IMG/VR virus record: IMGVR_UViG_3300025270_000064
Span: 1 to 28,107 of that record
Strand: one strand, 5' to 3'
DNA length: 28,107 bases
DNA from: a virus
Lineage: Duplodnaviria > Caudoviricetes
The notes under the pieces were generated by a model, which made no database searches, was not told where the DNA came from, and was given only the letters and a program-made list of their open reading frames with translations. Shown piece after piece: positions 1-20,412 of the stretch (positions within the stretch are counted from its first letter, which is position 1; every line of letters begins with the position of its first letter). Both the position numbers and the translations under genes were made by a program.

Positions 1-1443
1 ATCTAAATCAATACCAGTATTATTAACAGTACCCACCATTGTTGGCGAGTCACTATTCATATCTAAATCAAGACCGATATTAGTAGCAGTCTGACCAGAT
101 GCAGTTATACCAGTAGCATCAAAATCAAGATGTAAACTTCTTGTTGTAGCTGTAGTTGTAGCGGTTAGGTTAGAATCAATTAAAGCCGCAATAGCTGGGC
201 CATCTTGCTGTATCGCTAATGTTACTTGAGTATTTGACGCATGGTCGTTTCTCATAGTAACCAATGGGTCCGAACCTGATTCTGCAATATTGCGAGTAAA
301 AAAACCAGCATAACCACCACTGACATCCTGTATGGATTGTATACCATATTTACCTGTAATTTTTATAGCATCGTTACTTGCGGATTCACTATCGACCCTG
401 ATAGCACCAGCGTCATCATCTTGGTCAATAAATAACCGTGCATCATTTAGAACTAAATCATCTTCCGATGTGTCCCATGTCATGTTTGAACTGGCAGTGT
501 CTCCATAAAATATTACATCATAACCTTGGTTATCTGCGCCTATTGTAAGTGTACTGTCTAATTGTACTGCACCATCAATATCAACAGCGTCTAAGTTTGT
601 AATGCCGTCAACGTCTATATTAGCAGAAAAATAAGCGTGTCTACTTGTATCGAAATACAAAGCATAAGCTGGGGAAGAACCATACCATATACCAAATTCT
701 GTACCACCTGTTATTTCATAAGGGTCGCTACTTTCACCTGAAGCATGACCAATTCCCCATTCTAATGCACTTTCTCTATAAAATCTAATAATTCCATGTT
801 TATCAGAATTACCCTTCTTTAAATCAATATATTGGTCTGTTGTAGCCGCTCCAAAAGTTGATGTGCCAGCAACTGCTAACGTACTTGCCATGTCTACCGC
901 GCCATCAATATCAACAATGTCTAAGTTTGCAGTGCCATTAACATCAATATCACCTTCGATATCTACACTATCAGCAACTACTAAATTGCCATCAGCAATA
1001 TCTAAGGCTGTTGCACCGTTTGTACCTGTGATTGTTAGCTTTTCTGCGGATGAATCCCATGTGAAGTTGTCTCCAGCAGTATCACTATAAAATATTACAT
1101 CCGTTCCGCTTCCGTCAGCGCCAACAGTTAATGTACCAGATACATCAAGTGTGCCATTTACATCTATTGCGGTAGCTGTTAAATCAATTTCACTGCCACC
1201 AGCTATACTAAGAACAGAACCGCTGCCTGATATATACTCACCGCCAATATCATTAAAGTATAATTTATTTGTACTAGTTATACGAACACTGTCAGTTGAA
1301 AGTGCTAATGCACTTGACACTCCTACACCATCTTCTATAACTCTTGAATCAGTTGATGTTGCTACTAATCCAGCTGTATTGTCTTCAACATGTAATATTG
1401 AATCATAGGTATCTGCAATTTTTGAACCAGTTAATGTTGCCAT
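1..1443 (-). CDS. Tail fibre / receptor-binding-like virion protein (3'-truncated by window edge, >481 aa)
   Basis: Absent from the ORF track because it has no stop in the window. ATG at 1443 with GGAG upstream; open to base 1: MATLTGSKIADTYDSILHVEDNTAG...NNTGIDLD. G/T/D/S-rich beta-type composition with internal repeats (IDVNGT.., DIDGAV, TLTxGAD..DVIFY.DTA..xTWD). Confidence 0.75.
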   Translation of the reverse strand, partial: MATLTGSKIADTYDSILHVEDNTAGLVATSTDSRVIEDGVGVSSALALSTDSVRITSTNKLYFNDIGGEYISGSGSVLSIAGGSEIDLTATAIDVNGTLDVSGTLTVGADGSGTDVIFYSDTAGDNFTWDSSAEKLTITGTNGATALDIADGNLVVADSVDIEGDIDVNGTANLDIVDIDGAVDMASTLAVAGTSTFGAATTDQYIDLKKGNSDKHGIIRFYRESALEWGIGHASGESSDPYEITGGTEFGIWYGSSPAYALYFDTSRHAYFSANIDVDGITNLDAVDIDGAVQLDSTLTIGADNQGYDVIFYGDTASSNMTWDTSEDDLVLNDARLFIDQDDDAGAIRVDSESASNDAIKITGKYGIQSIQDVSGGYAGFFTRNIAESGSDPLVTMRNDHASNTQVTLAIQQDGPAIAALIDSNLTATTTATTRSLHLDFDATGITASGQTATNIGLDLDMNSDSPTMVGTVNNTGIDLD

Positions 1444-2341: not shown

Positions 2342-3037
2342 TTAACGTATTAAAGGGAAACCCTGAATTATGCGTGAACCCATCTGTTTACCAGATTGGT
2401 ACTTCTCAGCAGTTCTTCTAAATTCCCTCATAAAAAATTCTCTCATTTCCAATTCACCTGCATCTTCTGCATACTTTGCCTTAACATAGTATACAACAGC
2501 ATTTGCCAGATATCTTGGTATATCCAACTCATCAGTCTCAGAATCTAATGCATTTACATTATAATATAATGATGGAGTTTCTTCAAATGCTTGCTGAACA
2601 GTAGAACTATCACTGCATTTAGTATACAAAGTAATATATCCTGTACCAGCTGCTTTGACTTTATGCAATCCATTCCACTTACCAGCACTTCTTAATACTA
2701 TATAGCTTCCATCACTTAAACTTTCAGGAGAGGCAGAATAATCATTATCTCCCTGATCTATAAGTTTAAGTAGACCATCAGTTGATACATATGTATCTAT
2801 TTGAGTATCTACTTTATCAGTCTCATTTATGAAATAATTAGGACTGTGTACGTATTGTATCTCCAGGCCATCAGCTACACTTGCTGTAGGGCTTTTCCAT
2901 AGCAAAGCACCAATAACACTAATATCATTCAGTGCAGGCTGCGAAAGGGTCTGCCCACCAGAAAATGTCCAATCCTTCTGGACAACAGCAAGCTTACCCC
3001 CTTTTACATAATATGCATATTCCTTACTAGTTGGCAT
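2342..3037 (-). CDS. Putative head-tail adaptor / tail ring protein, C-terminal-type part with inserted domain
   Basis: Start at MPTSK (3037) or the track's ATG 3043. The C-terminus DELDIPRYLANAVVYYVKAKYAEDAGELEMREFFMREFRR resembles the helical end of podophage adaptor proteins; lies in the structural operon. Confidence 0.55.
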   Translation of the reverse strand: MPTSKEYAYYVKGGKLAVVQKDWTFSGGQTLSQPALNDISVIGALLWKSPTASVADGLEIQYVHSPNYFINETDKVDTQIDTYVSTDGLLKLIDQGDNDYSASPESLSDGSYIVLRSAGKWNGLHKVKAAGTGYITLYTKCSDSSTVQQAFEETPSLYYNVNALDSETDELDIPRYLANAVVYYVKAKYAEDAGELEMREFFMREFRRTAEKYQSGKQMGSRIIQGFPLIR

Positions 3038-3308
3038 CAGCATCCTTCCTGATCGGTTCGCCTATCATTCTTGGTATAGATCTATACTCACTGTCAGCAT
3101 TAAGATGATTAAGGCACCTTATATCCAATACCTTGATCATATCATGTGGAAAGTCATAGAACCTCTGATTCTCGGTTATATCAAACCTTTCCGTATTGAT
3201 ATGGGTTTCGGAGATAGTATTCATCTCTTCGAGAGCGTCTTTGATATATGCTACAGCTCTCCCAGTGTCAGAAACACCAACTCTTTCCATTATTTCTTGT
3301 ACTGTCAT
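3027..3308 (-). CDS. Putative adaptor protein, N-terminal-type part
   Basis: 93 aa; MTVQEIMERV...YIKDALEEM...ITENQRFYDFPHDMIKVLDIRC resembles the N-terminal helices and Y-x-L/F-P-x-D strand of adaptor proteins. Confidence 0.55.
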   Translation of the reverse strand: MTVQEIMERVGVSDTGRAVAYIKDALEEMNTISETHINTERFDITENQRFYDFPHDMIKVLDIRCLNHLNADSEYRSIPRMIGEPIRKDADAN

Positions 3309-3866
3309 CTAAGTTATTGTTACTAACTGTGTAAGCACAGTTGAAGATGATGAAGTACCACCTGCAACGTTATTTGATGCTGCTACATAGTATCCCATAC
3401 TACTACCAAGTGCTGGGGTATGCGGCAAAAATAACGCACCCTTATGTGGTATACTAGCAATAAGAGTATAAGCACCTGATGAATGCTCTACAAACACTGC
3501 TACATACTGATATGTCTTAGTATCAAAATCAGTATCTGTAAATCCAGTATGTTTAATAAACATACCATCATATACAGTATTTTCAGCACCAACTACCTGT
3601 TTTGTACCATCTGCTGCTAAAGAAGTATAAGTAGGAGTACCAGAACTATAATTAGTCACAGTACCAGCTATTTCAATCCCACCAGTAGCTTGAGTTACTG
3701 CAGAAACGCTACTACCTATACTACCACCAACTGCGCTATAATGTCTATAAGCAGTTGCTGCTACATCAGAACCAGCATTATTATTTTCATCATTAGTATA
3801 TGCAGTTGTAGCAGTATACTCATCAACCATATCAACTGACAATGCATATTTTATATGATCTGCCAT
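3309..3866 (-). CDS. Hypothetical virion protein (185 aa, T/S/A/G-rich)
   Basis: AGGAG SD, abuts neighbours, beta-rich structural composition. Confidence 0.7.
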   Translation of the reverse strand: MADHIKYALSVDMVDEYTATTAYTNDENNNAGSDVAATAYRHYSAVGGSIGSSVSAVTQATGGIEIAGTVTNYSSGTPTYTSLAADGTKQVVGAENTVYDGMFIKHTGFTDTDFDTKTYQYVAVFVEHSSGAYTLIASIPHKGALFLPHTPALGSSMGYYVAASNNVAGGTSSSSTVLTQLVTIT

Positions 3867-3869: not shown

Positions 3870-6800
3870 TTATCTCCTGTATTGTTGTTGCTGCTGAGAT
3901 TGCGCCTGAGCAGCAATTGTTCTATTTATCATTTTTGAATTATTCTGAATATACTTAGTTATCTCATCTTGAGCCCAAACATAATACCTATCTGCCTGCT
4001 TTTCATAATGCTGTATATTCTGTACTGTTAAAGTAACTTCCTGTGTTTTATCAGATATCTCTGCCTGATACTTTTGCAGGTTAGCACTATATTCTTGTAA
4101 ATCTGTTGTCCTTTCAGCCTCCCACACACGTAGATCGCCTTCAAGATTTTGCTGATACTCTTGTACTTCAGTAGCTACTTTCAATTGATATTGTTGAAGT
4201 TCAGCAGAATACTTTTGAATCTTACTACTATTGTCAGCAATAACGTCTTCTATCTGTTTTGCTGCATTAGCAAGTGCAAGTGCTTGATCTTGAGCTTTAT
4301 TAAACTTATCAACATCAGTAGCTTGAGCTGATTCTTGCTCTGCATCTGCTCTATCTAATTGAGCTTGAGTTAAAACTTTCTGTAAATCTGAGTTATGTTT
4401 CGCTATTTCAGCTTGTATATTTGCTTGATATCTGACGTTTTCCTTATTGAATTCATTTAACTCATTCTGAATATCAGCCTGGAAAACTGCTATATTATCT
4501 GATTCAGTTTTTTGCCATGCTTGATAAGCTGTATTTACTTCCATTTGATATCTAGATATCTTTTGTGTGTACTCTTGTATCTCTTTACTAATATTAGCTT
4601 GATATGTGGCAGTTTCTGCTTGATATAGTGAAATTTTTCTTTGATTATCATTTACAACAGCCTGCATGTCATTAACACCATTCTGTAATTGTCTCTGTAA
4701 ATCCCTATCTTCATCAGTAGTAGCGGCTTGTAAGTCAGATTGAGCTTGAGCAAGATTAACTTGATTGGCAATCTGAATTTCCTGCATAGATTCCTGAATA
4801 GCAGATTGATAAGCAATATTTTCTTTATTGAACTCATTTAGTTCATTCTGTATATCGCTTCCATATTTCTGTAAGTCTGTTGTTCTCTCTGCTTGCCAAA
4901 CCTGTATATCACCAGCAAGATTTTGTTGATATTGTTGTACTTCTTTATTAATTGTTGCTTGGTATGTTTGAACTTCAGCTTGATACTTTTGAATTTTACG
5001 TGCTTCATGTGCGTCTAATAATTGTGCTTCTTGTAAGTATTCTTGCAGTATAGCTTGATACTTGGCATTTTCCTTATTGAACTCATTCAATTCATTTTGT
5101 ATATCACTGCCATACTTTTGCAAATCTGTCTGTCTTTCCGTCTGCCAGACTTGTATATCACCTTGAAGATTCTGTTGATATTCTTGAACTTGCTTATTCA
5201 CATCTTCACTGTATGTTTGAACTTCTGCTTGATATTTCTGTATCTTGCGAGCTTCATTTTGATCAAGCAACTGTGCTTCTTGTACATATTCTTGTAAGAT
5301 AGCTTGATATTTAACATTATCCTTGTTGAATTCATTTAGTTCATTTTGAATATCACTCGCATATTTTTGCAGATCAGTTTGCCTTTCTGCCTGCCATACT
5401 TGTATATCTCCAGCCAAATTTTGCTGGTACTCCTGTACCTCCTTGTTAACTACTGCCTGATATGTACCAACTTCTGCTTGATAAAGTGCAACCTTTCTAT
5501 TATTGTCCTGAACAATAGCCTGCATATCATTAGTACCATTTTGCAGCTGTCTTTGTTGATCTCTATCTTTATTGGTTGTTGCAAGCTGAAGATCGGATTG
5601 TGCTTTTGCAAGATTAACTCCATTAGCAACTTGAAGTTCTTGTATAGATTCTTGTATAGCAGACTGATACGCTATATTCTCCTTATTAAACTCATTTAAT
5701 TCGTTTTGAATATCACTTGCATACTTTTGTAAATCAGTCTGTCGTTCTGCTTCCCAAACTCTTAAATCCCCTTCAAGATTCTGTTGATATTCTTGAACTT
5801 CTTTAGCCACATCAGCTTGATATTTACTAATATTTGCCTGATATACTTGCAATTCAAGTGTATAATCTTGTATAGATGCCTGTAATGTTTGAGTAGCATT
5901 CTGAATATTAACATTCGTTGAAAGTTGCATTTGCTGTATAGCAGCTGTAGTTGATTGCTGCATTTTAGCAATAGATGCAGATGTGGACTGTTGCATTTTA
6001 GATATAGATGCGTTTACGTCATTAGACGCATTAGCAATAGAAGCTTGTACTAATGTTTGCATAGATGCATTATTAGTTGAGACATCATTAGCAGCATTTG
6101 CAATAGATGCTTGAGTACCATCGTTTGCATTTGATATAGCTACTTGAGTAGCTTGTCTAGCATCTTCAATAGTTGCCTGCATAGCAGCAGTTGAACTCTG
6201 CACTTCTGCTTGAAATGCACTTATATAAGAATTAATTTTTTGTATTTGAGCAGATGCTAATTCAACATCTTCCTCTCCCTCTATAAAATGTCCTATAGTA
6301 GACCACCATTGGTCTACCTCTAGTTGGTCAGCATGAACATCTATAGTATTATCAGTATCTAATATAGATACATCTGTTACTTCATCTCCATCTCCTCCAA
6401 CAGTAGGTTTTGTATAAGCAGATGCCGTTGAAGCCGTTGCGCTTGAAGCAGATGCATCGCCTGGAGCATCTGTATCTGACGTACCAGCAGCATCTGTTGG
6501 GCCATGTGTAATAGAATCAACAGCTTGAGTAATAGCATCTTGAGCTGCACTTACAGCATTACCAACTGAAGCATTTGAATATGAAATTGTTGGACTAGGA
6601 GGAGGAACAGGAGAAATAGCAGAAATAGATAAATCTGAAATCGTAGGTGTAGTCCCTAACGCAAGAACTGGCTTTGTATAGCCTGGAGCACTTCCAGTAT
6701 AAGTACTCGATGCAGCAACAGTTGCAGTTGTAAAAACAGGAGCACTAGCATCTAATGCAGAATCTATACTAGTAAAAGTTACAGATGTCAAAGATGGGAC

Positions 6801-8075
6801 TGCTGGAACTACTGCCGATATACTTAAATCTGAAATTGTAGGAGCTGCCCCCAATGCAATGACTGGTTTAGTATATGTCGGAGCGAAACTAGAAGGATCT
6901 GCAATAACTTGAGCAGATATTGACGGAACTGTTGGTACTACAGAAGTAATAGACAAATCTGAAATTGTTGGGGCAGCTTCTAATGATAATACAGGTTTAA
7001 TATATGTTGGAGCAAAGCTAGAGGGATCAGCAACAACCTGTGCAGATATTGATGGAACTGATGGAGGTACAGCACTAATACTCAAGTCAGATATTGTTGG
7101 AGCCGCTCCTAAAGCTACTACTGGTTTACTATAAGCAGGTGCTGATCCTGTATATACGCTAGATGCAGACAAAGTTGCAGTTGAGATTGTAGGCTTAACC
7201 ACATCTAAAGCGGTATCTACACTAGTAAAAGTAACAGACGTTAAAGATGGTACTGAAGGAGAAACAGATGTTAACGATAACACACCTGGATCACTGTCAC
7301 CAAATGGATTTCTATCCTCACTTTCATTAAAAAAATCTTCAAAAGATATTTGAGTTGGATGTCCTGGCTTTGTATAGCCTGGAACATCACCACTTATATC
7401 AGCTTTTGATACACTAGCTACTGTTATTGCCCCAACAGTAGTCGCACTTGCGTCTGCATTAGTAGCATCTGAATATGAAACTGTACTTATTGACGGTACA
7501 GCAGGTGGTACAGCAGAAACTGATAAATCAGAAATAGTAGGAGCTGCACCTAGTGAAGGAGCAACTGGCACTATAGGGGAGGACCAACTTGGAACAGTGC
7601 CTGTAGCCAGTTTTGCAAATTCCTGAGCAGATGCATGAAAAATAACTGCATTCCTTAAATCACAGTCATCATCTATCTGAGAATAATCCACATAATACAC
7701 ATACCCATCATTGCTTCCACCTGAAGAAGGATCTGGTTTTATGAATACCTTTCCCTGGGCATGATAGTATTTAGGATATAAATTAGTCGCTTTATGTAAA
7801 CTTGCACTATCATCAATCCACTTGCTCATACTGAATGGCACTTCAGAAGCAGGATAACCCTCCCTCTCAACTGCAAGCACACTATCAGCAGTTTGAACAT
7901 CGTATCCATTTGCATCTTGAATAGCTGAAGATTGTGAAGAAGCAAACCAAAGCAAATCTTTAGGAATGCTTGAAGCTATAAATCTTTGAGCAGAAACAAT
8001 AAAATCATCTGAAGCACCGTGTGCGGTTACTCCAGTTATTGAAACTATCTCAACTGATATGTTTGTTGTAGCCAT
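3870..8075 (-). CDS. 1401-aa virion protein: adaptor-like N-domain, six Pro/Ser/Thr-rich repeats, central turn, six Gln/Tyr-rich helical repeats
   Basis: Long ORF; repeats APTISDLS..VP..PS....YxKP and YxSDIQNELNEFNKEN...EYQQNLxGDxxVWxxERxTDLQK are directly visible. Confidence 0.85.
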   Translation of the reverse strand: MATTNISVEIVSITGVTAHGASDDFIVSAQRFIASSIPKDLLWFASSQSSAIQDANGYDVQTADSVLAVEREGYPASEVPFSMSKWIDDSASLHKATNLYPKYYHAQGKVFIKPDPSSGGSNDGYVYYVDYSQIDDDCDLRNAVIFHASAQEFAKLATGTVPSWSSPIVPVAPSLGAAPTISDLSVSAVPPAVPSISTVSYSDATNADASATTVGAITVASVSKADISGDVPGYTKPGHPTQISFEDFFNESEDRNPFGDSDPGVLSLTSVSPSVPSLTSVTFTSVDTALDVVKPTISTATLSASSVYTGSAPAYSKPVVALGAAPTISDLSISAVPPSVPSISAQVVADPSSFAPTYIKPVLSLEAAPTISDLSITSVVPTVPSISAQVIADPSSFAPTYTKPVIALGAAPTISDLSISAVVPAVPSLTSVTFTSIDSALDASAPVFTTATVAASSTYTGSAPGYTKPVLALGTTPTISDLSISAISPVPPPSPTISYSNASVGNAVSAAQDAITQAVDSITHGPTDAAGTSDTDAPGDASASSATASTASAYTKPTVGGDGDEVTDVSILDTDNTIDVHADQLEVDQWWSTIGHFIEGEEDVELASAQIQKINSYISAFQAEVQSSTAAMQATIEDARQATQVAISNANDGTQASIANAANDVSTNNASMQTLVQASIANASNDVNASISKMQQSTSASIAKMQQSTTAAIQQMQLSTNVNIQNATQTLQASIQDYTLELQVYQANISKYQADVAKEVQEYQQNLEGDLRVWEAERQTDLQKYASDIQNELNEFNKENIAYQSAIQESIQELQVANGVNLAKAQSDLQLATTNKDRDQQRQLQNGTNDMQAIVQDNNRKVALYQAEVGTYQAVVNKEVQEYQQNLAGDIQVWQAERQTDLQKYASDIQNELNEFNKDNVKYQAILQEYVQEAQLLDQNEARKIQKYQAEVQTYSEDVNKQVQEYQQNLQGDIQVWQTERQTDLQKYGSDIQNELNEFNKENAKYQAILQEYLQEAQLLDAHEARKIQKYQAEVQTYQATINKEVQQYQQNLAGDIQVWQAERTTDLQKYGSDIQNELNEFNKENIAYQSAIQESMQEIQIANQVNLAQAQSDLQAATTDEDRDLQRQLQNGVNDMQAVVNDNQRKISLYQAETATYQANISKEIQEYTQKISRYQMEVNTAYQAWQKTESDNIAVFQADIQNELNEFNKENVRYQANIQAEIAKHNSDLQKVLTQAQLDRADAEQESAQATDVDKFNKAQDQALALANAAKQIEDVIADNSSKIQKYSAELQQYQLKVATEVQEYQQNLEGDLRVWEAERTTDLQEYSANLQKYQAEISDKTQEVTLTVQNIQHYEKQADRYYVWAQDEITKYIQNNSKMINRTIAAQAQSQQQQQYRR
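4090..6214 (-). repeat. Coding repeats, alpha-helical units of about 164, 120, 83, 83, 127 and 131 aa
   Basis: DIQNELNEFNKxN occurs five times; units counted by hand from the translation. Confidence 0.85.
6404..7570 (-). repeat. Coding repeats, Pro/Ser/Thr-rich units of about 66, 81, 43, 43, 65 and 88 aa
   Basis: Each unit ends in YxKP; five of six contain PTISDLS. Confidence 0.85.
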
Positions 8076-8675: not shown

Positions 8676-10304
8676 TTATGTCCAGATAGCATGGGATTCG
8701 GCCATTGACCATTCCATGCCAGCTTCAGTTAAGATTTGATCTACTCTACGGTCGACTCCTGAGTTCTCTAAAGTTTGAACTCCTACGTAGACTGAAGTGT
8801 CTCTATTAACGCCATTACCAACTAAAGGTCTGTAAGCACAGTTCTTCATGTTGATGCCAAGCATCTTCACGTTTGAACCGTCAAGGTGAATATTGCGAGC
8901 AACATTCATGTCTCCGTACACAGTTGAAATCTGCGTTACATCAACACCTAAGACCTTCTTTCTTCCTACCAAACTCATGTCAGCACGTCCTAAACTACCA
9001 CCCGCAGCCGTTTGCGCTGGGAATGAAGTAGGTGAAGTGTTACCAGAACCTGGCTGTACAACGCCAACATTATTAGCAAAGTACCCACTCAACTTATGTA
9101 ACCAGTTATAAACTGCAGTGTTACAGAAGAACATGGTTGCTTGGCTATTGTTGTATCTTGGATCTATGTAATTAGAAAGATCATCAAGAAAAGCATCCTG
9201 AGTTTTAGTTGTAGGATCTAAGCTAAATGCATTTCCATAACCAGAAATGTAATCAACAGCACCCTGAGTATACTGAATACTATCACCATCTGAATACTGA
9301 GATCCAAATAGTAATGAAGTTTCAATATCCCACTTGTGTTCAATCAACTTCTCTTTCCAAACACGAGCCCACTCATTCTGTTCAAACTTCAATACTGTGG
9401 CACGAGCCGTATTGGTCATTGCCATTGAAGTCTTCCAAATCTGAGTAAGACCATGATTGCTTTGATAAGGTTGATCAATCCAGGTTTCTGGAAAACCAGA
9501 ACCTTCCTGGTGAGCACTACCTACTACATAACTTCTAGCTCTTTCAAGAACTCCTGCAATAGATATAGCAGAAACAGCTTCACTGTCAGCTCCACTTGGA
9601 GCAAAGTCATTGTTATCAAAACCAGCATATCCTAGATAGCTTGAATCTGTTGCCTTTACCACTTTACAAGTAACAACTGCAGGATATTTACTATCCTTTG
9701 CTGAACTTTCAAATGAATCTGCATCAACTTCAGTTATTCTAGCTAACATATAACTGGATCCCCATGAGGTTGCAGCTGTAGCTGAACTTGTCATTGTAGG
9801 AATCTTAATAACTTGACCTGGAATGAAGAACTTTGGTGTAGTTCCACTAACTCCAACATCAATTTTGTTAGATGTATTGCCAAATACATTCTGCACATTA
9901 CCAGCACTCTTATAATCACCTGCCATATACAGTTTTAATGTATCTCCAACAGCTACAGAAGATCCAGTGCCACCATCATTATATGCTTCAATGGTGTCAT
10001 CTGCAAATTCATCCTGGCCGTCATTCTGTACATAGCCCATGACATAAGCATACCGCTTATGAAACGAAGGACGTTTCTCAGAGAATTTAAACTGAGGATC
10101 GTCAGTCGCTTTTTTCGCCACCTTACTTACAAATCGAAAAAACGGATCTTGAGGGATTGCCAGCTCTGATACCCTGCTGCCGAAGTTATACTTTCTACGT
10201 ATATCCCCAGTTGCAAGGTCAGTACTTGTACCTGGCCCTCGTCCATCAAAGTCCGAAACACTAAGATCTGTGTTAGGTGTTATCGCCGATATAAAATCAG
10301 CCAT
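8676..10304 (-). CDS. Major capsid protein (SU10-MCP / DUF5309-like)
   Basis: 542 aa; motifs DPFFRFVSK, GSAHQEGS, TQIWKT, EKLIEHKWDIETSLLFG, TQG, LTEAGME; canonical portal-scaffold-MCP order; AAGGAG SD. Confidence 0.85.
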   Translation of the reverse strand: MADFISAITPNTDLSVSDFDGRGPGTSTDLATGDIRRKYNFGSRVSELAIPQDPFFRFVSKVAKKATDDPQFKFSEKRPSFHKRYAYVMGYVQNDGQDEFADDTIEAYNDGGTGSSVAVGDTLKLYMAGDYKSAGNVQNVFGNTSNKIDVGVSGTTPKFFIPGQVIKIPTMTSSATAATSWGSSYMLARITEVDADSFESSAKDSKYPAVVTCKVVKATDSSYLGYAGFDNNDFAPSGADSEAVSAISIAGVLERARSYVVGSAHQEGSGFPETWIDQPYQSNHGLTQIWKTSMAMTNTARATVLKFEQNEWARVWKEKLIEHKWDIETSLLFGSQYSDGDSIQYTQGAVDYISGYGNAFSLDPTTKTQDAFLDDLSNYIDPRYNNSQATMFFCNTAVYNWLHKLSGYFANNVGVVQPGSGNTSPTSFPAQTAAGGSLGRADMSLVGRKKVLGVDVTQISTVYGDMNVARNIHLDGSNVKMLGINMKNCAYRPLVGNGVNRDTSVYVGVQTLENSGVDRRVDQILTEAGMEWSMAESHAIWT

Positions 10305-10367
10305 ATCGAACTCCTTACTTTAAGTTCCGATAGACCTCAAGTCAAAGCGACTTTATATAAGTTAAAT

Positions 10368-11258
10368 CTATCCGAACAGGTTATCTAATTCACCATCCAG
10401 ACCAAGGAGACCATCAAATAACGCATTATTTGGATCTACTTCCTCGGCCTGACTATTGGCTCCACTAGCGGACGTTGGTATATGTCGTACATTTTTCATC
10501 TGGGTCAGCATATCGGTCTTCGTAGATTGGACAACATTAGCATTAGCCTGATCACGATTCAGAAGATAGTCAATGTCTTCAAGTGTAAGCACATGTTTCT
10601 GTGCTTTTCCTTTAAAGGTCTCAAACTCTTCATCAGTCATACCCTTCTTTTTCCTGAAGTCATTTTCCATTTCATTCTGAATTTTAGCAGCGTTTGCTTT
10701 CTGCGCTCGATGCTTTTCATGGTTTACTATTTGTCCTACTCTATTCTCAACGACTTTATCTACCTGAGCAGTCAGGACTTTTGCTGAATCAGATTCGGGT
10801 TCTGTCATTGCTTCATTAGCATCAAAGACAAAATCCTCATCCAGTTTCAACTCTTCCTGAATACTTTTAGGAGTATTACCTCCATTTACCAGATATTCAC
10901 GAACATGTTCTACTAGTCCACTATCGTTCTTCATTGCATCAAGAACTGGTACAAAGGGTTCAATCTCTTTATACTGTTCTCTCAGCTTGACGGCTTCACG
11001 ACTACTGTCTTTGTAGCGTTTTTTATAAGGGTTGCCATCATCATCCCATTCCACGTTATCGGAGCCAACAGCTTCTTGCTGGGTTACCTGTTCGGTGCCA
11101 ACTGCCTGTTGGGTTGCCTCAGTGTTGCCTTCGGTTATCATACCGTTGACATCTCCTTCAAGGGCTTCAAAAAAATTATCCGAGGAGCCAAAAACCTTAT
11201 CTGTAACCTGATCTTCCTCGATAGTTACGGTTTCTGGGTTGCCTACAGTTTCTTCCAT
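10368..11258 (-). CDS. Capsid scaffolding protein
   Basis: 296 aa, acidic N-terminus, YKKRYKDSSREA coiled-coil, located between portal and MCP. Confidence 0.7.
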   Translation of the reverse strand: MEETVGNPETVTIEEDQVTDKVFGSSDNFFEALEGDVNGMITEGNTEATQQAVGTEQVTQQEAVGSDNVEWDDDGNPYKKRYKDSSREAVKLREQYKEIEPFVPVLDAMKNDSGLVEHVREYLVNGGNTPKSIQEELKLDEDFVFDANEAMTEPESDSAKVLTAQVDKVVENRVGQIVNHEKHRAQKANAAKIQNEMENDFRKKKGMTDEEFETFKGKAQKHVLTLEDIDYLLNRDQANANVVQSTKTDMLTQMKNVRHIPTSASGANSQAEEVDPNNALFDGLLGLDGELDNLFG

Positions 11259-11284
11259 ATTATTTCCCCATAGTTGATTTGATG

Positions 11285-13582
11285 TTACTTATTTTTGTCA
11301 TTACTTTGCAAATCTTTTTTTGCAAACTGTAATTCTCTTGATAAATCTTTCTTTGTAGCGTCTACTTGATTAGACATTACATTCTGTAAAAGCTTCTGTT
11401 TTGCCTCGGTTGAACGATAGGAATCCTTCAAATCACCCTTCACTTCTTCCTTCTTTTTAGTGATCTCCATCTCAGCCTGCATAACTTTACCCTTAATACC
11501 AGCCTGTACCAACTGTCTTTCCAGAGTTTCGATAGTCCCCTCCTTGTCTTTCAATGATTCCTGCAATTGTCCTAACTGGCCCTGTAACTGAGAGTATAGA
11601 CTCTTACGCTTCGCTATTTGTTCTTTATTCCGTATATCTGTTTCAGCAAGAACAGCAATATCATCCACAACACCAAACTTAAGAAGTTCCTTTAACTCAG
11701 CAAGGTATGCCCATCTGTTTACTGGCAATGTTGAACCAGCTACAATTTTCACGTCAAACTTGGCAGCTGAATAATCCATTGATTTCCCAATTGCCTGCCC
11801 CATGTCATTATAAATTGGAATATTTATCTCCTGCTGTCGTTCTTCCTGTATAGCAGAAGGCTGTATAATCCTGAATCTCTTATTAGCTGTATACACAGAT
11901 TGAGATATCTGCATTATAACTTTCCCCATCTGTCTCAAGGCTGGCTCTATAGAATGTTTCATCCACTGCTTAATTCTTCTTGTCCCATACTCATCAAGCG
12001 CAAGCATGCCCCTGAATGTTTCATGCTGCTGTTGTGTATCACCCTGCATTGATGAATAAATACCAGCAAGATACTCCATATCCTGCTTGGCTTCCTGTAC
12101 AACACTAAAAAACGCATTTGACAAAGGTGCTGGCATAATTGGAGTTGGTCTTTCAGATCCTGGTCTTACTGAAAGTAATGCTCCAGGTGAGGAAGAATAC
12201 TTCTCCCATTGATCTGGATCAATAGAACCTTCTTCATAAAGCCATCTTAGGGAAGAACCCAAAGATGCATTGTGTACCATTATCTGGTGAGATTTGTTTA
12301 TTTCTTTCTGCTTTCCTACCAAAGGGCCAACTGCAGATACTGGATAAGGAGTACCAGTCCACTTATAATGAAATGGAATTAACGGATAATCAACTACATT
12401 TTCTGGATATACAACTTCGTACAACAGTTTATCCCCTGCACATATTGTCTGTTTAATCCTGGTACCATAGAACTGCACAGCATCAACAATAGATTCCTGA
12501 AAAGCTTTATCTTTAAGCAATATCTTATATTCCTTTTCTGAAATAACTTTATTTTCAATCTTTGATGCTTCTGCCTGCAATTTACTCATATACTGCTGTT
12601 CAGCTGCCTGAAGCTGATCCTGCATCATTTGCTGGGCTTTCTTCATCTCCAATTCAAATCTTTCAGGAATCATCTTTCCTTCTTGAACAGCCTGCTGCAT
12701 TTGTTTCTGCTGTTCCATAAGCTCAACTTCCATCTCAGCAGCCATCTCCTTCATTTTTACTTGTACCTGCTGCTGAATAGCTTTTAATTGTTCTTTATTA
12801 GGAGGTATCCTGTAAAATACATTCATATAGGATATCTTAATCTTTTCGTAGAGTTCAAATAGTTCTAATGTTGGTTCATGCTGTCCTTCCGAATCAACTC
12901 CCATATCTTCGGCATTAGAGTCATCTCTTAAAAAAAGCTTTTGCTCTCTATCTGAAAGTGCTCTTTCTGAATAGGATCCATGACCTTCTAAAGAAGATGC
13001 ACTACTAATCTTACGTTTATAATGTGGAAAAAGCTTTGCAACATGACTTTTCGGAAGAACTTTTCTTATCAGGATATAAGATGCATCCCTGAACATCATA
13101 TCTCTGGACTTCGGATCTACATATATATCAAATGGTTCTGGCTGCTGTAACACAACCTCCCCCATGCCATTGTCCATATCTGTATCAACAGTAACCAGTA
13201 TATATCCAATTGATTTACAGATAGCATCATTTATTGCATTAGAATACAGAGCTGCACCGTCAGATAAGCTCCAGATATAATCAGAAAGATCTGAAAATAC
13301 TGCTGCTACATCAGAATCACTGCCTTCAACCCCAATAGCCTGCCATCTAGGATTATTGGCAGTAGCATAGAAATTCAGCATTTCAACTACAGGTAATATC
13401 CTGTTAATCGTAAATGTAGGCATGCCCTGATCCTGTAAAGCAGTTTTCTCATCAAAAGACAATTGTTCGTCATGAGCAAATTCATATCCTTTCTGGTTTA
13501 TGAACTGCCACTGACTACGTGTCCAGTTGCTGGACAGGTTATATAATTCTCTTATCTGATCTACTTTTTTCTTCTTAGCCAT
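11285..13582 (-). CDS. Portal protein (P22-like)
   Basis: 765 aa; PTFTINRILPVV, PFDIYVDP, YPLIPF, QKEINK, YLAGI motifs; Q/M-rich coiled-coil insertion and long C-terminal coiled-coil; downstream of TerL. Confidence 0.85.
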   Translation of the reverse strand: MAKKKKVDQIRELYNLSSNWTRSQWQFINQKGYEFAHDEQLSFDEKTALQDQGMPTFTINRILPVVEMLNFYATANNPRWQAIGVEGSDSDVAAVFSDLSDYIWSLSDGAALYSNAINDAICKSIGYILVTVDTDMDNGMGEVVLQQPEPFDIYVDPKSRDMMFRDASYILIRKVLPKSHVAKLFPHYKRKISSASSLEGHGSYSERALSDREQKLFLRDDSNAEDMGVDSEGQHEPTLELFELYEKIKISYMNVFYRIPPNKEQLKAIQQQVQVKMKEMAAEMEVELMEQQKQMQQAVQEGKMIPERFELEMKKAQQMMQDQLQAAEQQYMSKLQAEASKIENKVISEKEYKILLKDKAFQESIVDAVQFYGTRIKQTICAGDKLLYEVVYPENVVDYPLIPFHYKWTGTPYPVSAVGPLVGKQKEINKSHQIMVHNASLGSSLRWLYEEGSIDPDQWEKYSSSPGALLSVRPGSERPTPIMPAPLSNAFFSVVQEAKQDMEYLAGIYSSMQGDTQQQHETFRGMLALDEYGTRRIKQWMKHSIEPALRQMGKVIMQISQSVYTANKRFRIIQPSAIQEERQQEINIPIYNDMGQAIGKSMDYSAAKFDVKIVAGSTLPVNRWAYLAELKELLKFGVVDDIAVLAETDIRNKEQIAKRKSLYSQLQGQLGQLQESLKDKEGTIETLERQLVQAGIKGKVMQAEMEITKKKEEVKGDLKDSYRSTEAKQKLLQNVMSNQVDATKKDLSRELQFAKKDLQSNDKNK

Positions 13583-13585
13583 TCG

Positions 13586-13828
13586 TTACCCTAAATCTTT
13601 TTGAATAAGCTGTGTATCCATCATTGTTAAACCTTTTGATTTATCAGGCTTACCATCTTTTCCTGCTTGTGCTACTGCCAGACTATATCTGCCCTCTGGA
13701 ACTATTTTTCTAAAAGCTCTATAGATATCTGGTATTGTTTTAAATTTTCTGTTAATAACATCCTTTAGTCCTAATTTTTCATTTAGAACATCAAATTTCC
13801 CAATTTCTGTTACCATAATTAAAATCAT
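13586..13828 (-). CDS. Hypothetical protein (80 aa)
   Basis: GAAGGA SD, in operon orientation. Confidence 0.6.
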   Translation of the reverse strand: MILIMVTEIGKFDVLNEKLGLKDVINRKFKTIPDIYRAFRKIVPEGRYSLAVAQAGKDGKPDKSKGLTMMDTQLIQKDLG

Positions 13829-13857
13829 TTAACTTCCTTCTTTATACCAGTTAACCA

Positions 13858-14013
13858 TTATTTACCTTCTTTGTACTTATTCTTTGGAAAGTTGTAGTAA
13901 AAATTAGGCGTTTCACTTCCTTGTATCTTACTACCTCCCTTCCTGACATGCTTCTTCCCAACTGGATGAAGCTTTCCACTATCTGGTCAAATATGTAATG
14001 CTTCTTTAGGCAT
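13858..14013 (-). CDS. 51-aa His-rich protein with in-frame TGA at codon 9 (candidate selenoprotein, or pseudogene)
   Basis: MPKEALHI*PDSGKLHPVGKKHVRKGGSKIQGSETPNFYYNFPKNKYKEGK; ATG coupled to the upstream stop (TAATG); TGA at 13989-13987; hairpin follows. Confidence 0.55.
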
Positions 14014-14264
14014 TAGTAACCAGGCTTTTTAATTCCTCGAGATGCAGGTGCTTTCCCCATTGGTGCTTTTCCTGCTGGTGCTGCACCTGGACTTTTTTTA
14101 GCATATCCACCTTGATATTTAAGACATTTCTCTCTTTCTACTGGATCTATTATCTTACTACATACTTCTTTGCTTGGCATATCATGCCTCCTTCTTGTAT
14201 TTCCTGTTTTTAGTTCACTCTTATCTTCTACGGATAAGTCTGTGGTTGTAATTACGGATGGCAT
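14013..14264 (-). CDS. Small basic protein (83 aa) with an MCP-like N-terminus
   Basis: Start re-called to MPSVITTTDLS (ATG 14264 overlaps the TerL TAA). Confidence 0.7.
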   Translation of the reverse strand: MPSVITTTDLSVEDKSELKTGNTRRRHDMPSKEVCSKIIDPVEREKCLKYQGGYAKKSPGAAPAGKAPMGKAPASRGIKKPGY

Positions 14265-15820
14265 TAAGCTACCACCCAATCTTTTGCTTTAGGCTTCTTC
14301 TTATACCATTTGCCTTCTTTATCTTTACCTGCAGCTAATGGTGGATGAGCGAATTTGCAGGCATATGCAAGTGCATCTATAGTATCATCGTGCGCCATTC
14401 TTGGGCCAAAGGTTGTTATTTCCCTATGCAGATCATATTGCATTTTCTTGAGATGTATCTGCCCGATAGAGAACCTTTGAGCCAGTATTTCCTGTATTCG
14501 GTCTCTTTTACTCATCCTGGTGCCTGGTTTTTCAGCCTTGTATCCGATAGAGAAGTCATTTCTCCTTCTCATCTCCGAGTTAAGTGCCTGAAATATAGGC
14601 TTACTCATAGTAGTATCTTCAACTGTGAAGAGGTTAGGCTTATAACTTTTTGCGTACTGGAACATGTAATCTACAATTCCAAGTTTATTCTCTCCAGGTA
14701 TACCTAATACTGGGATGGACTGTTTCCTGATGTAGTCAAGAACATATATATTGTTGTCTGGAGTCACTGCTACAGCAATAATGACAGAGAAGTCGGAATC
14801 CCGTCTTGCTGAATCAGTTGCAGGATCCACACCAACAAATACACTGCAGGGTTGGTAGCCTTGGTCGTTTGCATCTATAAATGAAAGACCAGTATCTTTA
14901 TCTACATAGAACTTGCCATCCCAGTATTTAATGTGATCTCTGGTAAATATTGCATCTTCAGCACTCTGTACTTCCATCATATACTCTTGATAAAACTTCT
15001 GTGGAGTACCTGAGTCCTGATAAAATTTCTTTTTTCTGTTCATCTCCTTCATTCCAAACCAATCTGGCCAGAGAGGAGTACCATCTTCCTGTAATGCCTT
15101 ATAAGTTATGACATGCCAGCTAAATCTTTCCGCTTTCCTTAATGATTGCTGATATCCAACGAGGATCTTCTGTATAAATGAATCATAATGCACTGGGGTG
15201 CCATTGATCCTTAATCTTCCCGTTTTCGGCTCCAAAGCAGGAAAGACAACCGCTGTAACAAGGTTTGATATTTTCGAGCGACTCTCAGGCGTAATAGTAT
15301 TATTCTCGTCCTCAAAATCATCCAGTACAATGAGATCGTATCTCTTATGGAGTTTCGCTCCACCTCTTATACCCGAAAGGTTAGATTTTGATATAAGTTT
15401 ACAGTTATTGTTAAGTTCAATATCATCTTCAGTCCACTTCCTTCCTTTTAAATCACCAAAGTAATACTTTACTTTATCATTATATTCAATGTGATACTTG
15501 ATATAATCAAGGTTAGGCACAGATATTTTGGAACTTGCTGCCACCCAACCATAGAATAAAGGTTCCTTAGTAAAAAGGAAGTCATGAAGAATGCTGCACT
15601 TGGTGAGTACTGTCTTTCCATGTCCTCTAGGGAGAATTACAGCCAGCTGCCTGATGTCCCTGTTATCAACTGCATCTGCCACTTCATAATGAAAAAATGG
15701 TGTTTCACTACGTGTAAAGTCATCTGGTAGAAATAACTTACCAAATGCTATTAAGTCCTCATATGCGAGTTTAAGCTCTTCTTCAGCTTTTGAAACGACT
15801 TTTGTGTTAAAATTCGCCAT
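14264..15820 (-). CDS. terL: Terminase large subunit
   Basis: Walker A PRGHGKT, Walker B LIVLDDFED, motif III NGTP, RNase H-like nuclease GVDPA..DFS and HDDTIDALAYA. Confidence 0.93.
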   Translation of the reverse strand: MANFNTKVVSKAEEELKLAYEDLIAFGKLFLPDDFTRSETPFFHYEVADAVDNRDIRQLAVILPRGHGKTVLTKCSILHDFLFTKEPLFYGWVAASSKISVPNLDYIKYHIEYNDKVKYYFGDLKGRKWTEDDIELNNNCKLISKSNLSGIRGGAKLHKRYDLIVLDDFEDENNTITPESRSKISNLVTAVVFPALEPKTGRLRINGTPVHYDSFIQKILVGYQQSLRKAERFSWHVITYKALQEDGTPLWPDWFGMKEMNRKKKFYQDSGTPQKFYQEYMMEVQSAEDAIFTRDHIKYWDGKFYVDKDTGLSFIDANDQGYQPCSVFVGVDPATDSARRDSDFSVIIAVAVTPDNNIYVLDYIRKQSIPVLGIPGENKLGIVDYMFQYAKSYKPNLFTVEDTTMSKPIFQALNSEMRRRNDFSIGYKAEKPGTRMSKRDRIQEILAQRFSIGQIHLKKMQYDLHREITTFGPRMAHDDTIDALAYACKFAHPPLAAGKDKEGKWYKKKPKAKDWVVA

Positions 15821-15832
15821 TTATGGTACCTT

Positions 15833-15862
15833 ATAATACAAAAAATAAGGTTTATAAGTCAA
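15833..15862 (-). promoter_or_regulatory. Sigma70-like promoter for terL
   Basis: TTGACT-18 nt-TATTAT, 12 nt upstream of the ATG, right after a U-tract. Confidence 0.45.
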
Positions 15863-15876
15863 AAAGTATAAGTTAT

Positions 15877-15988
15877 AAACAAAAAAGGGACATGGTAGCC
15901 TCCACCTGGCCCTTAACTATCCAACAAGTGTCGGACTTGCACACATACAATCACCGTTGCATTTTAGCACTGGCACTTTAGTCCCTTT
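15877..15988 (-). ncRNA. Multi-stem structured RNA ending in a U-tract
   Basis: Closing helix AAAGGGAC/GUCCCUUU; inner hairpins AUGCAA/UUGUAU, GUCCGAC/GUUGGAU, GGUGG/CUACC; G-U pairs favour the minus strand. Confidence 0.55.
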
Positions 15989-16310
15989 AATACTCCCTTT
16001 TATCAGTCGTATCTGGAGCAGCTTCCATCATAGCGTCCATTTCTGACTGCATGATATACTTTTCACCATATCTATCCTTGGCTTCTTCAAGCCTTCTTTC
16101 TGGTGTCCAATAGTAGTTATCAAAAAATGAATTCACGGCTTTAACAGTAGCATCACCATATTGACCGTCTATACTTAGATCCTTATTCTCTGGATAGTAT
16201 TGAAGAAGTTCTTGAAGTCTGGTAACATTTTCATTCGTCATACCTTCTTCTTCCTGGGTAGCTTCGTAAGCTGCGTTTACTTTATCACTGTATTCTTGAT
16301 CATATGGCAT
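15987..16310 (-). CDS. Acidic protein with peptidoglycan-binding (PG_binding_1-like) domain
   Basis: VTRLQELL...SIDGQYGDATVKAVNSF matches the V..LQ..L...DG.YG..T..AV..F pattern. Confidence 0.65.
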   Translation of the reverse strand: MPYDQEYSDKVNAAYEATQEEEGMTNENVTRLQELLQYYPENKDLSIDGQYGDATVKAVNSFFDNYYWTPERRLEEAKDRYGEKYIMQSEMDAMMEAAPDTTDKREY

Positions 16311-16324
16311 TTTAATCTCCTTTA

Positions 16325-16684
16325 CTATAAATCTTTAATTGAATCTATAATTTTATCTTCTGCAGATACACCCATTTTTAATTTCTTGAAATATTGATGA
16401 ATAAGGGCATCTGCTTCCATACCTTCTTTATAAGTTTCATATTCACCAAAATGTTTTCCTTTTTCTATTGCACCCTTATAAGCACCTTCAAATGGCAAGT
16501 CTACTCCTCCCATCATGGTAGGGAACAAATACCATTTATCTGTTTCAGGGTCAACTTCCAGCCTAGTCTTAATATTCGATTCACCTGATCTTCCATCCTT
16601 TACCCATGAAACTTCGGGGAACAGTTTAAAATTTAAAGGCATAGTACCTTTATAATCAAATCCATACTTACTCTGCTTGGCCAT
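16325..16684 (-). CDS. Hypothetical phage protein (119 aa)
   Basis: ORF overlapping the terS end; no function recognised. Confidence 0.65.
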   Translation of the reverse strand: MAKQSKYGFDYKGTMPLNFKLFPEVSWVKDGRSGESNIKTRLEVDPETDKWYLFPTMMGGVDLPFEGAYKGAIEKGKHFGEYETYKEGMEADALIHQYFKKLKMGVSAEDKIIDSIKDL

Positions 16685-17396
16685 TTTCTATCTCTTTAGG
16701 TCTTTCAACTTCTTCCAGCTGCTCTTCACTAAACCCTTGAAACTGTATACCTGTCAACTGGGTAAGCTTGGCAGCAGACTTATCCTCAAGGTCTAAAATA
16801 TCAGATAACTTAAACAAAGCCTTTAACTTAGTGTCATCTTTCTCAGACTCATCAGCGACTGCCTTTATCCCTTCCAGGACAGTCTCATCGGTGATGCCTA
16901 ATTTCTCTAAAACTGGTTCTAATTCTTTTTTCATAGCTTTCCTTATCCTGGTACATTTTATCAATTCTGTACTTCTGAAGTTAGCATAGTGTGGATCATT
17001 AGTGGGAAATGCTTTTATATAAGCTTCTACTGGTTTCAATCCTGCAGCCACGTATTCAACAAACAACATTTCGTACTTATTAAGCTTCTCCCTGGTATCT
17101 GTCTTTGAATTTAAGCCGCTTATTGTATAGATGTTCTCCCGTCTAGACGTATCCATGGGAGCACTTACTGGATAAGTTCCTGTGCAAGTACGATAGTAAT
17201 GCACGATTCTCTTTTTGCCTTTTGGTTTGACAAGATTCCCCTTTTTGAGGACTTGTATATAACAGCCATCATCCGCCTTAACCCAATCCCCTTCTTCTGA
17301 CTCTCTCCAATCAGAAACGGGGTGGATGTCACTGGGCAACTCGTCTGCATCATCATACACGCAGTGAGGCTGGCGGTTTACATGATAGTGTCTCAT
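16668..17396 (-). CDS. terS: Terminase small subunit-like protein with extra N-terminal domain
   Basis: LNKYEMLFVEYVAAGLKPVEAYIKAF HTH and GITDETVLEGIKAVA...KLKALFKLSDIL oligomerisation helices; upstream of terL. Confidence 0.65.
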   Translation of the reverse strand: MRHYHVNRQPHCVYDDADELPSDIHPVSDWRESEEGDWVKADDGCYIQVLKKGNLVKPKGKKRIVHYYRTCTGTYPVSAPMDTSRRENIYTISGLNSKTDTREKLNKYEMLFVEYVAAGLKPVEAYIKAFPTNDPHYANFRSTELIKCTRIRKAMKKELEPVLEKLGITDETVLEGIKAVADESEKDDTKLKALFKLSDILDLEDKSAAKLTQLTGIQFQGFSEEQLEEVERPKEIENGQAE

Positions 17397-19311: not shown

Positions 19312-19482
19312 ATGGATGATCGAAATGAACAATATCTTGGAGTACACTGGAGTGAAATATATACTGAATGCAAAGAATGTAAAGGCGATGGTAATGATGG
19401 ACATTGTAAGTCATGTGATGGTGAAGGATTAGTATTAGATAAAGACGGTAAGGATTATAAATACTATAAAGGAGGTGAATAA
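19312..19482 (+). CDS. 56-aa protein with DnaJ-type CxxCxGxG zinc finger
   Basis: CKECKGDG...CKSCDGEG; start re-called to ATG 19312 after GGGAG. Confidence 0.7.
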   Translation: MDDRNEQYLGVHWSEIYTECKECKGDGNDGHCKSCDGEGLVLDKDGKDYKYYKGGE

Positions 19483-20015: not shown

Positions 20016-20016
20016 T

Positions 20017-20110
20017 ATAGGCTGCTTGAGGGATGCTCCTTCACCTCTGATTAAACTGAGCGACCTGATGTAACATGCTGTTGAAGGGTCAAATAATTGA
20101 GGCAGTCTAT
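20017..20110 (+). ncRNA. Multi-branch structured RNA (module A)
   Basis: 11-bp closing helix AUAGGCUGCUU/AGGCAGUCUAU with three inner stems. Confidence 0.55.
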
Positions 20111-20132
20111 TTAATTTAAAGGAGTACTTGAA

Positions 20133-20288
20133 GTGGGAAAAGAACTACAAAGTAAACATAGAAAGCTGAGTAAAAGAATGACTCAGAAACAATTGAAATC
20201 AAGACTTGAAAAAATCAAGAAAAGAAGGGAGAAATCAGATTATGACAATAATGGCGTTTATGAAAAAACATCTAGTTCTACCAGGTGA
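20133..20288 (+). CDS. 51-aa basic protein
   Basis: GTG start after AAGGAG; MGKELQSKHRKLSKRMTQKQLKSRLEKIKKRREK... Confidence 0.5.
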   Translation: MGKELQSKHRKLSKRMTQKQLKSRLEKIKKRREKSDYDNNGVYEKTSSSTR

Positions 20289-20400: not shown

Positions 20401-20412
20401 TATTTATTTATA

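Follow-up and report, generated by a model that had tools for sequence, protein, structure and literature searches.

In the adaptor of phage T7, the last helix of the bundle lines the inner channel and grips the portal with its C-terminal end (PMC6702177), and the SU10 adaptor is a dodecamer built on the same plan (PMC9509320). The lower collar of P68, a phi29-like phage, is dodecameric, and its 12 hairpins form a 108-Å tube, the turn of which binds a distal knob (PMC6795507). In streptococcal antigen I/II proteins (SpaP A3VP1, PDB 3IOX; BspA), a long helix is followed, after a turn, by a proline-containing extended chain, with Tyr set against Pro (PMC3707005, PMC4974636). Here we describe a gene (3870..8075) found in a stretch of 28,107 nucleotides, hereafter the window, which corresponds to positions 1 to 28,107 of the Caudoviricetes record IMGVR_UViG_3300025270_000064 of IMG/VR. 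Structural models predict that the long repeats of its product, the window protein, are inserted before the last helix of a podovirus adaptor fold, an arrangement undescribed before. The two arms of the insertion almost certainly fold back antiparallel as a hairpin, an extended strand lying on a helix at about 1:1.9. With less assurance, we somewhat favour the view that twelve copies form a long alpha-helical, DNA-conducting tail tube braced outside by the extended strands. No paper on the family was found in the open-access literature, which most subscription papers fall outside.

Predicted adaptor domain and mirror-ordered arms

Residues 1-160 of the window protein group with the SU10_adaptor and CrAss_Ring_1 clusters of the ESM Atlas. 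A model of the 520-residue homolog P0197 is confident in the N-terminal domain (predicted local distance difference test, pLDDT, mostly > 85) and in the C-terminal cap helix (pLDDT 85-94), and matches podovirus adaptors in Foldseek (best E 1.7e-4). In a VIA search with the same model, the top seven rows are portal-tail chains, with middling Z scores of 8.0-9.4, root-mean-square deviations of 3.8-5.1 Å and 156-182 aligned residues. The alignments run from model residues 1-2 to residues 514-520 and cover nearly the whole target chain (181-227 residues) up to its end, which places the last bundle helix at the C-terminus. An earlier interpretation made from the DNA letters alone (the sequence-only reading) had proposed an adaptor-like anchor, and these neighbours and matches agree with it. 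Pfam PF24175 was matched neither by the window protein nor by any of 50 homologs. The adaptor-type gene is present in one copy per locus. Because residues 1-157 and the C-terminal cap are predicted to form one adaptor domain, the insertion must run out and back. As the last helix (alpha-4) of T7 lines the channel and has its C-terminal end on the portal, lengthening alpha-4 at its N-terminal end would continue the channel away from the head.

Recurrent anchors divide both arms into units. In the N-arm, Y.KP anchors occur at residues 234, 315, 358, 401, 466 and 554 (spacings 81, 43, 43, 65 and 88); in the C-arm, DIQNELNEFNK anchors occur at residues 788, 908, 991, 1074 and 1201 (spacings 120, 83, 83 and 127). 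The outermost units, X (66 residues) and X' (131 residues), were placed by the phase of head and tail motifs read from the sequence, and 66/131 recurs as a pair in homologs. The length of Y' (164 residues) was set by a degenerate anchor 29 residues past the hinge, where most homologs have a normal one. The resulting series, 66-81-43-43-65-88 in the N-arm and 164-120-83-83-127-131 in the C-arm, are in exact mirror order. From X to Y, the C/N length ratios of the mirror pairs are 1.98, 1.57, 1.93, 1.93, 1.85 and 1.86, and the C-arm helical units total 708 residues. The atypical type B head of L* is mirrored by an atypical B' tail in L*', and the four typed inner anchors are A/A'. Thus the reverse order of the units, the matched head and tail, the 708 helical residues and a ratio of about 1.9 in five of six pairs, all part of the sequence-only reading, are recovered when both series are re-derived from anchors and motif phase.

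The N-arm contains 11.3% Pro and 30% Ser+Thr. It is a proline-punctuated extended chain, and the term polyproline, used for it earlier, was an overstatement. The C-arm has no Pro and is composed of 17.5% Gln, 9% Asn and 12% Ala. Both arms are strongly acidic (net -21 and -48, respectively). The hinge between them features the motif I..EED.ELA, the acidic residues of which are conserved in 169 distinct hinges (E 98%, D 100%, E 98%). Two hinge forms occur, at about 49 and about 22 residues from the last anchor, and the long one has an Asp-rich loop that may be a metal site. In the Y/Y' pair (5691-6680), 7-residue microrepeats of the N-arm lie opposite 11-residue microrepeats of the C-arm; in the homolog P0098 both are jointly expanded (125/215 vs 88/164). 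Tandem Repeats Finder (TRF) detects periods of 129 nt (78% matches) and 249 nt (76% matches) in the gene. A DNA-level function of the repeats was ruled out because they are coding and merely 76-78% alike. Pfam matches to Apolipoprotein and Pepsin-I3 are compositional.

Contact and covariation of the arms in homologs

Homologs comprised 183 proteins of near-equal length and 949 shorter ones, and the best 120 of each were analysed. Among representatives of 50% clusters, 1111 match a profile built on the hairpin tip. Together with the window protein, the set amounts to 241 proteins; 196 could be parsed, with a hinge, a start Met and both anchor types, and 45 were dropped.

Contact between the arms was assessed by mean-field coupling analysis of 265 mirror-paired anchor windows. 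The top 25 inter-arm couplings lie on an antidiagonal, with a slope of -1.9 and a Spearman coefficient of -0.95. When only multi-unit proteins are considered (184 rows), the slope is -2.0 and rho is -0.97, with 22 of 25 pairs in the band. In controls, the pattern is lost: rho is -0.03 (8 in band) when pairing is deranged within proteins and 0.05-0.09 (13 in band, round invariant columns) when it is made across proteins. Shared ancestry of unit types adds to the coupling signal but alone places nothing on the slope -2 line. A slope of -1.9 to -2.0 fits about 2.9-3.0 Å per residue for an extended chain beside a helix. The strongest coupling links the Lys two residues after the N-arm Tyr with the Glu four residues before the C-arm Phe, a K/E pair present in 169 of 250 distinct rows. 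Loss of K or E often accompanies loss of its partner, and 39 of 46 pairs are concordant in held-out proteins. The coevolution between halves that the sequence-only reading had proposed to look for is therefore present, and it is antiparallel at about 1:1.9, with the strand first and the helix second, a polarity opposite to that of antigen I/II, as had also been suggested.

The C-arm is helical both in the P0197 model and in a model of a two-unit tip fragment. The proline arm has pLDDT < 50 in the former; in the latter, built from a register-correct alignment and with a predicted template modelling score (pTM) of 0.52, it has pLDDT 57-81 and no helix or strand. Searched with Foldseek, the tip model gave no match at E 0.001; its best VIA match (Z 8.2) is among helical bundles, and antigen I/II is not among the matches. 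A four-copy complex prediction of the hairpin-tip fragment scored 0.02, which speaks neither for nor against binding.

The lengths before and after the hinge correlate across the parsed homologs (r 0.89), and anchor counts are equal in 145 of 196 once a degenerate first C anchor is added in 22. In a partly overlapping set collected from loci, 119 of 145 distinct complete open reading frames (ORFs) were parsed; these span 329 to 1843 aa, 93 have equal counts, and r is 0.97. Unit order was analysed in 61 proteins with at least two units (170 units in 56 distinct architectures). Within proteins, unit lengths correlate at 0.57 in mirror order and at -0.02 in parallel order, and none of 5000 within-protein shuffles reaches the mirror value. 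With a leave-one-out length codebook, the length of the partner is predicted within two residues for 51% of 168 partners in mirror order vs 14% in parallel order. Head and tail typing of 244 anchor pairs yields 48 A/A', 85 B/B' and no crossed pairs, the remaining 111 being untyped on one or both sides; parallel pairing in multi-unit proteins would yield 25 crossed pairs. The similarity of N windows tracks that of their mirror C windows (rho 0.52; 1657 comparisons in 28 proteins) but not that of the adjacent N window (rho 0.06) or of off-mirror C windows (rho 0.04). Closely related proteins give the same picture. Among 58 disjoint nearest-neighbour pairs (121 proteins), 37 differ in length; both arms change in the same direction in 35, with a slope of 1.72 between arms, and the change is one-sided in two.

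Anchor counts are unequal in 51 proteins. In 16 of these, a degenerate anchor with a score of at least 10 lies at the place predicted by the codebook, and most of the others resemble mis-called anchors, truncations or variant outer junctions. About four homologs are unbalanced: P0188, P0151 and P0133 have an extra N unit and, by eye, P0021 has an extra C unit. These may be transient recombinants or assembly chimeras. Results from 120 more distant, held-out proteins also count against strict pairing. Only 61 were parsed, 34 of them with equal anchor counts, and the arm-length r is 0.76; the unit-order test, limited to 10 mostly uniform architectures, was non-significant (mirror 0.11, parallel -0.15, 828 of 3000 shuffles). 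Because unbalanced homologs exist and the held-out order test is non-significant, arm pairing is a rule and not a law.

The gene is a recombination mosaic, in which near-identical outer parts occur with different hinges and vice versa (P0151/L056; P0188/L165; P0017/P0191). The claim that length can change only by paired duplications thus stands for paired gain and loss, seen in most homologs and in 35 of 37 changed pairs, while the word only has to be given up in view of the unbalanced homologs and of the mosaic. The same applies to the proposal that homologs of different length always change by mirror pairs: arm lengths correlate, with exceptions. A nested double crossover was considered as an explanation of paired change, and is not supported by linkage or synonymous sites. 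Adaptor domain, hinge and cap are equally weakly linked (Spearman 0.147, 0.146 and 0.154 in 103 proteins), and synonymous sites, probably saturated, carry no mirror signal (rho 0.00-0.01). Single cases, such as P0151 vs L056, resemble inner swaps.

The smallest members of the family (279-293 aa) retain only the hinge and a short hairpin. A second stalk type occupies the same adaptor slot in some relatives (L116:4506-6206; L008:5131-10659; P0041; L012). It features a proline-free, Ala-rich N-arm and a C-arm with Gln/Tyr heptads, and is probably a helix/helix hairpin. L008 has both stalk types in series.

Helix faces, the proposed tube and other readings

The C-arm helix of the window protein carries separate stripes of aromatic (338°), aliphatic (28°), Gln/Asn (124°), small (186°), basic (230°) and acidic (282°) residues, each found in 0 of 2000 shuffles. 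The same set is observed in 51 S-type units, and in the 61 held-out homologs the aromatic, aliphatic, Gln/Asn and charged stripes keep their angles. The helical period is 3.61-3.64, heptads being restricted to the rarer proline-free module. Couplings to the N-arm map mostly to 210-330°, the aromatic and charged side. The 120° sector, in contrast, contains 62% Gln/Asn, 5% acidic and 1% basic residues, and this amide-rich face would be the lumen of the tube. In a 12-mer with the lumen at 124°, seams are expected near 49° and 199°, and are seen at 28° and 186°. In five proline-free C segments of the helix/helix type, the 120° sector is still 65% Gln/Asn; since the stripe persists there, it does not exist for the sake of a polyproline backbone. 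It is, moreover, in phase with the polar face of alpha-4, the 60° and 120° sectors of which contain 1-3% hydrophobic residues in the main class; between the last stalk Tyr and the cap Trp, spacings of 20, 31 and 45 occur. The separate stripes and the phasing of the Gln/Asn stripe with the last helix of the adaptor are new. This phasing and the retention of the stripe in proline-free modules are the reasons for preferring the tube.

The tube could be built as follows. The product would be a podovirus-type adaptor ring protein with two mirror-ordered repeat arms grown out of the loop that precedes the last helix, and the ring would be a dodecamer, as in other adaptors. The 700-residue helix would run straight on from the channel-lining alpha-4 in the distal direction, and twelve such helices would close into a barrel, with Gln/Asn facing the lumen and aliphatic and small residues at the helix-helix seams, while the aromatic/acidic face would point outward and carry the Pro/Ser/Thr strand of the same chain. 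P-x-Y-x-K-P would dock on the QNELNEFN segment, with a K-E salt bridge. The conserved acidic hinge would be the distal rim, to which the next ring and the nozzle dock. Tube length would thus be counted in matched unit pairs, reaching about 106 nm at most here and ranging from about 8 to > 100 nm in the family. Recombination within the gene would change the length, and most mismatched arms would be lost to selection. With a long tube, the nozzle would be brought through a thick surface layer of the host, and ejection proteins might be stored inside.

The same hairpin need not form a tube. Each could be a free single-chain stalk. The neck would then bear twelve thin radiating whiskers, as in antigen I/II, each reaching up to about 100 nm, and the hinge at the tip would sense or bind a surface or a small tip protein. 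The mirror and covariation results fit this arrangement equally well, as does the slope of about -2, which is the extended-to-helix rise ratio; a Tyr stripe with Pro partners and an Asn seam are antigen I/II features, the arms are strongly acidic, and the single-chain tip model leaves the arm without helix or strand. We regard it as rather unlikely, since conserved residues occupy all helix faces at the anchor and, on geometric grounds, one strand cannot bury all of them. The Gln stripe is also kept opposite a helical partner and in phase with the alpha-4 polar face, and what the insertion lengthens is the helix lining the channel, the usual docking place of the next tail part, rather than the outward fibre-dock domain. 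Furthermore, the tip lacks an adhesin-size domain, and separate fibre genes lie downstream. Of the fibre proposed by the sequence-only reading, what remains is therefore one of two readings, the residue pattern round the helix fitting a twelve-helix tube better than a free stalk.

Conservation on faces that the N-arm does not use would also be accounted for if the aliphatic and Gln/Asn faces bundled hairpins by twos or threes; the product would then be six or four thicker fibres, or a solid needle-like rod, and no hollow tube. The 28 C-unit lengths tend to fall at whole turns of 3.64 residues (4 of 2000 random sets), as in straight bundles. This reading is distinctly unlikely: the aliphatic and small seams flanking the conserved amide face are about 158° apart, near the 150° of a 12-helix ring and unlike a dimer or trimer core, and an all-amide core over 700 residues would be unusual. 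Lastly, the arms may not be stably paired in the virion, the extended arm being a slack tether or an assembly chaperone for a helical tube or coiled coil, so that the length match reflects reach alone. The low pLDDT of the arm in the full-length model and the three homologs with an extra N unit would fit, but type-specific pairing (133 matched and 0 crossed among the 133 of 244 anchor pairs typed on both sides) and position-specific couplings such as K/E render it very improbable.

Several observations weigh against the tube. The small-residue stripe is weak (R 0.20-0.25) and shifts to 137° in the held-out set, and no clear contacts between helices emerge from covariation within the helix. Of the five helix/helix segments, which are mutually related, just four face a partner clearly free of proline. 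That the amide face has no couplings is weak evidence, because invariant Gln/Asn columns cannot covary, and in streptococcal BspA an Asn seam bonds to the proline arm (PMC7732690). In the models (pTM 0.52-0.53), the helix is interrupted about every 83 residues, and in that of the full-length homolog the arm is at pLDDT < 50. Adaptor domains can be 94-99% identical in relatives whose helices differ by up to 310 residues, which is much variation for a tail to tolerate. A second adaptor-like ring appears to be encoded nearby, so that either ring could contact the portal. How many copies form the ring, which way the hairpin points, where the lumen lies and what the hinge does are inferred.

Even cautiously read, the family has protein modules far apart in the chain whose pairing follows a readable code, as in an RNA stem; helix/extended-chain rods of set length could be studied and designed from its hundreds of natural matched pairs. 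The tube, towards which we modestly incline, would be a new tail architecture. It would add to tape measures, stacked rings and beta-hairpin collars a mechanism in which tail length is set by the gene itself; it would blur the division between short and long tails, make virion shape predictable from sequence and provide a programmable protein nanotube wide enough for DNA. There is, in our estimate, an even chance that uncultured phages forming a widespread group build a single-gene, twelve-chain, alpha-helical tube tail of an undescribed kind, its length written as a palindrome of complementary modules and tuned from < 10 to > 100 nm by matched pairs, without a tape-measure protein or tube subunits.

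Locus organization and comparison with known systems

Features of the window are listed in Table 1.

Table 1 Features of the adaptor gene and its neighbours in the window
Feature	Position	Strand	Size or basis
Whole gene, predicted adaptor ring protein with mirror-repeat hairpin insertion	3870..8075	minus	1401 aa ORF
Predicted adaptor domain, residues 1-157 (helices 1-2, beta fibre-dock domain, helix 3)	7605..8075	minus	ESM Atlas neighbours; model of homolog P0197
N-arm unit X, residues 168-233, 66 aa	7377..7574	minus	sequence; 66/131 pair in homologs
N-arm unit L*, residues 234-314, 81 aa, type B head	7134..7376	minus	anchors, head typing
N-arm units S, S, residues 315-357 and 358-400, 43 aa each	6876..7133	minus	anchors, TRF
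N-arm unit L, residues 401-465, 65 aa	6681..6875	minus	anchors
N-arm unit Y, residues 466-553, 88 aa	6417..6680	minus	anchors
Hinge/tip, residues 554-631, conserved I..EED.ELA motif	6183..6416	minus	putative distal end and dock for next tail part
C-arm helical unit Y', residues 632-795, 164 aa	5691..6182	minus	anchors
C-arm helical unit L', residues 796-915, 120 aa	5331..5690	minus	anchors
C-arm helical units S', S', residues 916-998 and 999-1081, 83 aa each	4833..5330	minus	anchors, TRF
C-arm helical unit L*', residues 1082-1208, 127 aa, type B' tail	4452..4832	minus	anchors, tail typing
C-arm helical unit X', residues 1209-1339, 131 aa	4059..4451	minus	sequence; 66/131 pair in homologs
C-terminal cap: predicted last helix (alpha-4) of adaptor fold and basic tail	3870..4058	minus	model of P0197, adaptor alignments
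SU10-like major capsid protein, probable scaffold, P22-like portal, large and small terminase	8676..17396	minus	upstream context
185-aa neighbour, conserved slot	3309..3866	minus	locus comparison
Two adjacent ORFs, 93 and 233 aa, together like a second, split adaptor ring; putative distal ring	2342..3308	minus	weak SU10_adaptor matches

Sufficient upstream DNA was present in 112 loci (counting duplicates), and in 104 of these the capsid gene is among the last three ORFs upstream of the adaptor gene. The adaptor gene is usually followed by a gene of 150-190 aa and then by the split adaptor-like pair. Among 74 distinct loci, the 150-190-aa gene is missing in the four with the shortest adaptors (279-293 aa) and in L037 and L116; its product is perhaps a stalk-associated protein. 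No family was found for the 185-aa neighbour in the window, and profile searches gave no solved relative for it or for the 233-aa ORF. SU10_adaptor matches of the split ring ORFs are weak (E 7e-4) and were obtained for 4 of 18 homologs of the 233-aa ORF, and for both halves in G004. The ring appears to be split into two ORFs in most relatives, and the length of the second varies widely. In three relatives (L085, L096, L095), a small cassette with an extra fibre-like gene lies between the adaptor gene and the split ring genes.

In five relatives, a large gene is followed by genes of 200-700 aa and 1500-3100 aa; the large gene and the giant ones stand where nozzle and ejection proteins would be expected, and are candidates for these functions. 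Phrog_511 is weakly matched by two of the 22 proteins scanned, and none of the 22 matches long-tail gene families. A Gly/Asp/Thr-rich ORF that runs off the window (1-1443) likely encodes a tail fibre; it is related to downstream genes that, in some relatives, feature an endosialidase chaperone domain. A replication block on the plus strand (19482-27700) carries a Sak4-like annealase, a primase-helicase and a Gam-like protein, and GC skew changes sign near 18,000. The tail region of a relative includes an ORF matching a class II tRNA synthetase domain (L047:6317-7129; E 3e-11). One genome of 111,116 bases, G001 (L016), may be doubled, as an adaptor-like match lies about 55.5 kb from the analysed locus. 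With P0197 as query, no cultured relative was matched among 50,697 GenBank phage records. No host is claimed because the assignments of four genome-bin contigs (two Poseidoniales, one Marinimicrobia and one Bacteroidota) conflict; they are probably mis-binned.

Podovirus adaptors (T7 gp11, SU10 gp11, Pfam PF24175; the ring proteins of phiCrAss001) resemble the window protein in the predicted four-helix bundle with a beta fibre-dock domain, and in the closeness of the gene to capsid and portal genes. The extended barrel of crAss001 may help to cross the capsule, and stores cargo proteins (PMC10172136). The P68 lower collar likewise is a collar with an out-and-back hairpin insertion, and illustrates how a tube would work here. 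It differs in being made of beta-hairpins and 108 Å long, whereas here a helix is predicted to pair with an extended strand, and the structure is modular, with a length range of more than tenfold. The 24-strand beta-hairpin barrel of phi29/P68 type is a feature that the window protein does not share, its return arm being helical in both models. No sequence match to any solved chain, including the P68 collar and antigen I/II, was found for the window protein.

The tube of the DNA pilot protein H of phiX174 is formed by alpha-helices with a Gln/Asn face, which lines a DNA conduit in H and would line a lumen here. In H, 18 of 23 inward positions are N/Q/R, and hendecads and heptads occur in series (PMC7354561). 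Differently from the window protein, the H decamer forms during ejection, without an outer bracing strand or an adaptor domain. The P22 portal barrel is a further Gln-rich 12-helix tube.

Antigen I/II shares with the window protein the pairing of a long helix with a proline-containing chain, and BspA shares the Asn seam mentioned above. Membership in antigen I/II is ruled out by order, domains and repeat period. The order of the arms is opposite, and Pfam detects no V domain, Ig-like C domains or LPXTG in the window protein. The helix is Gln-rich with a period of 3.61-3.64, as opposed to Ala-rich heptads, and the N-arm is 11% Pro. In addition, the window protein features several mutually exclusive module types arranged in a mirror code, and is anchored by a putative phage adaptor.

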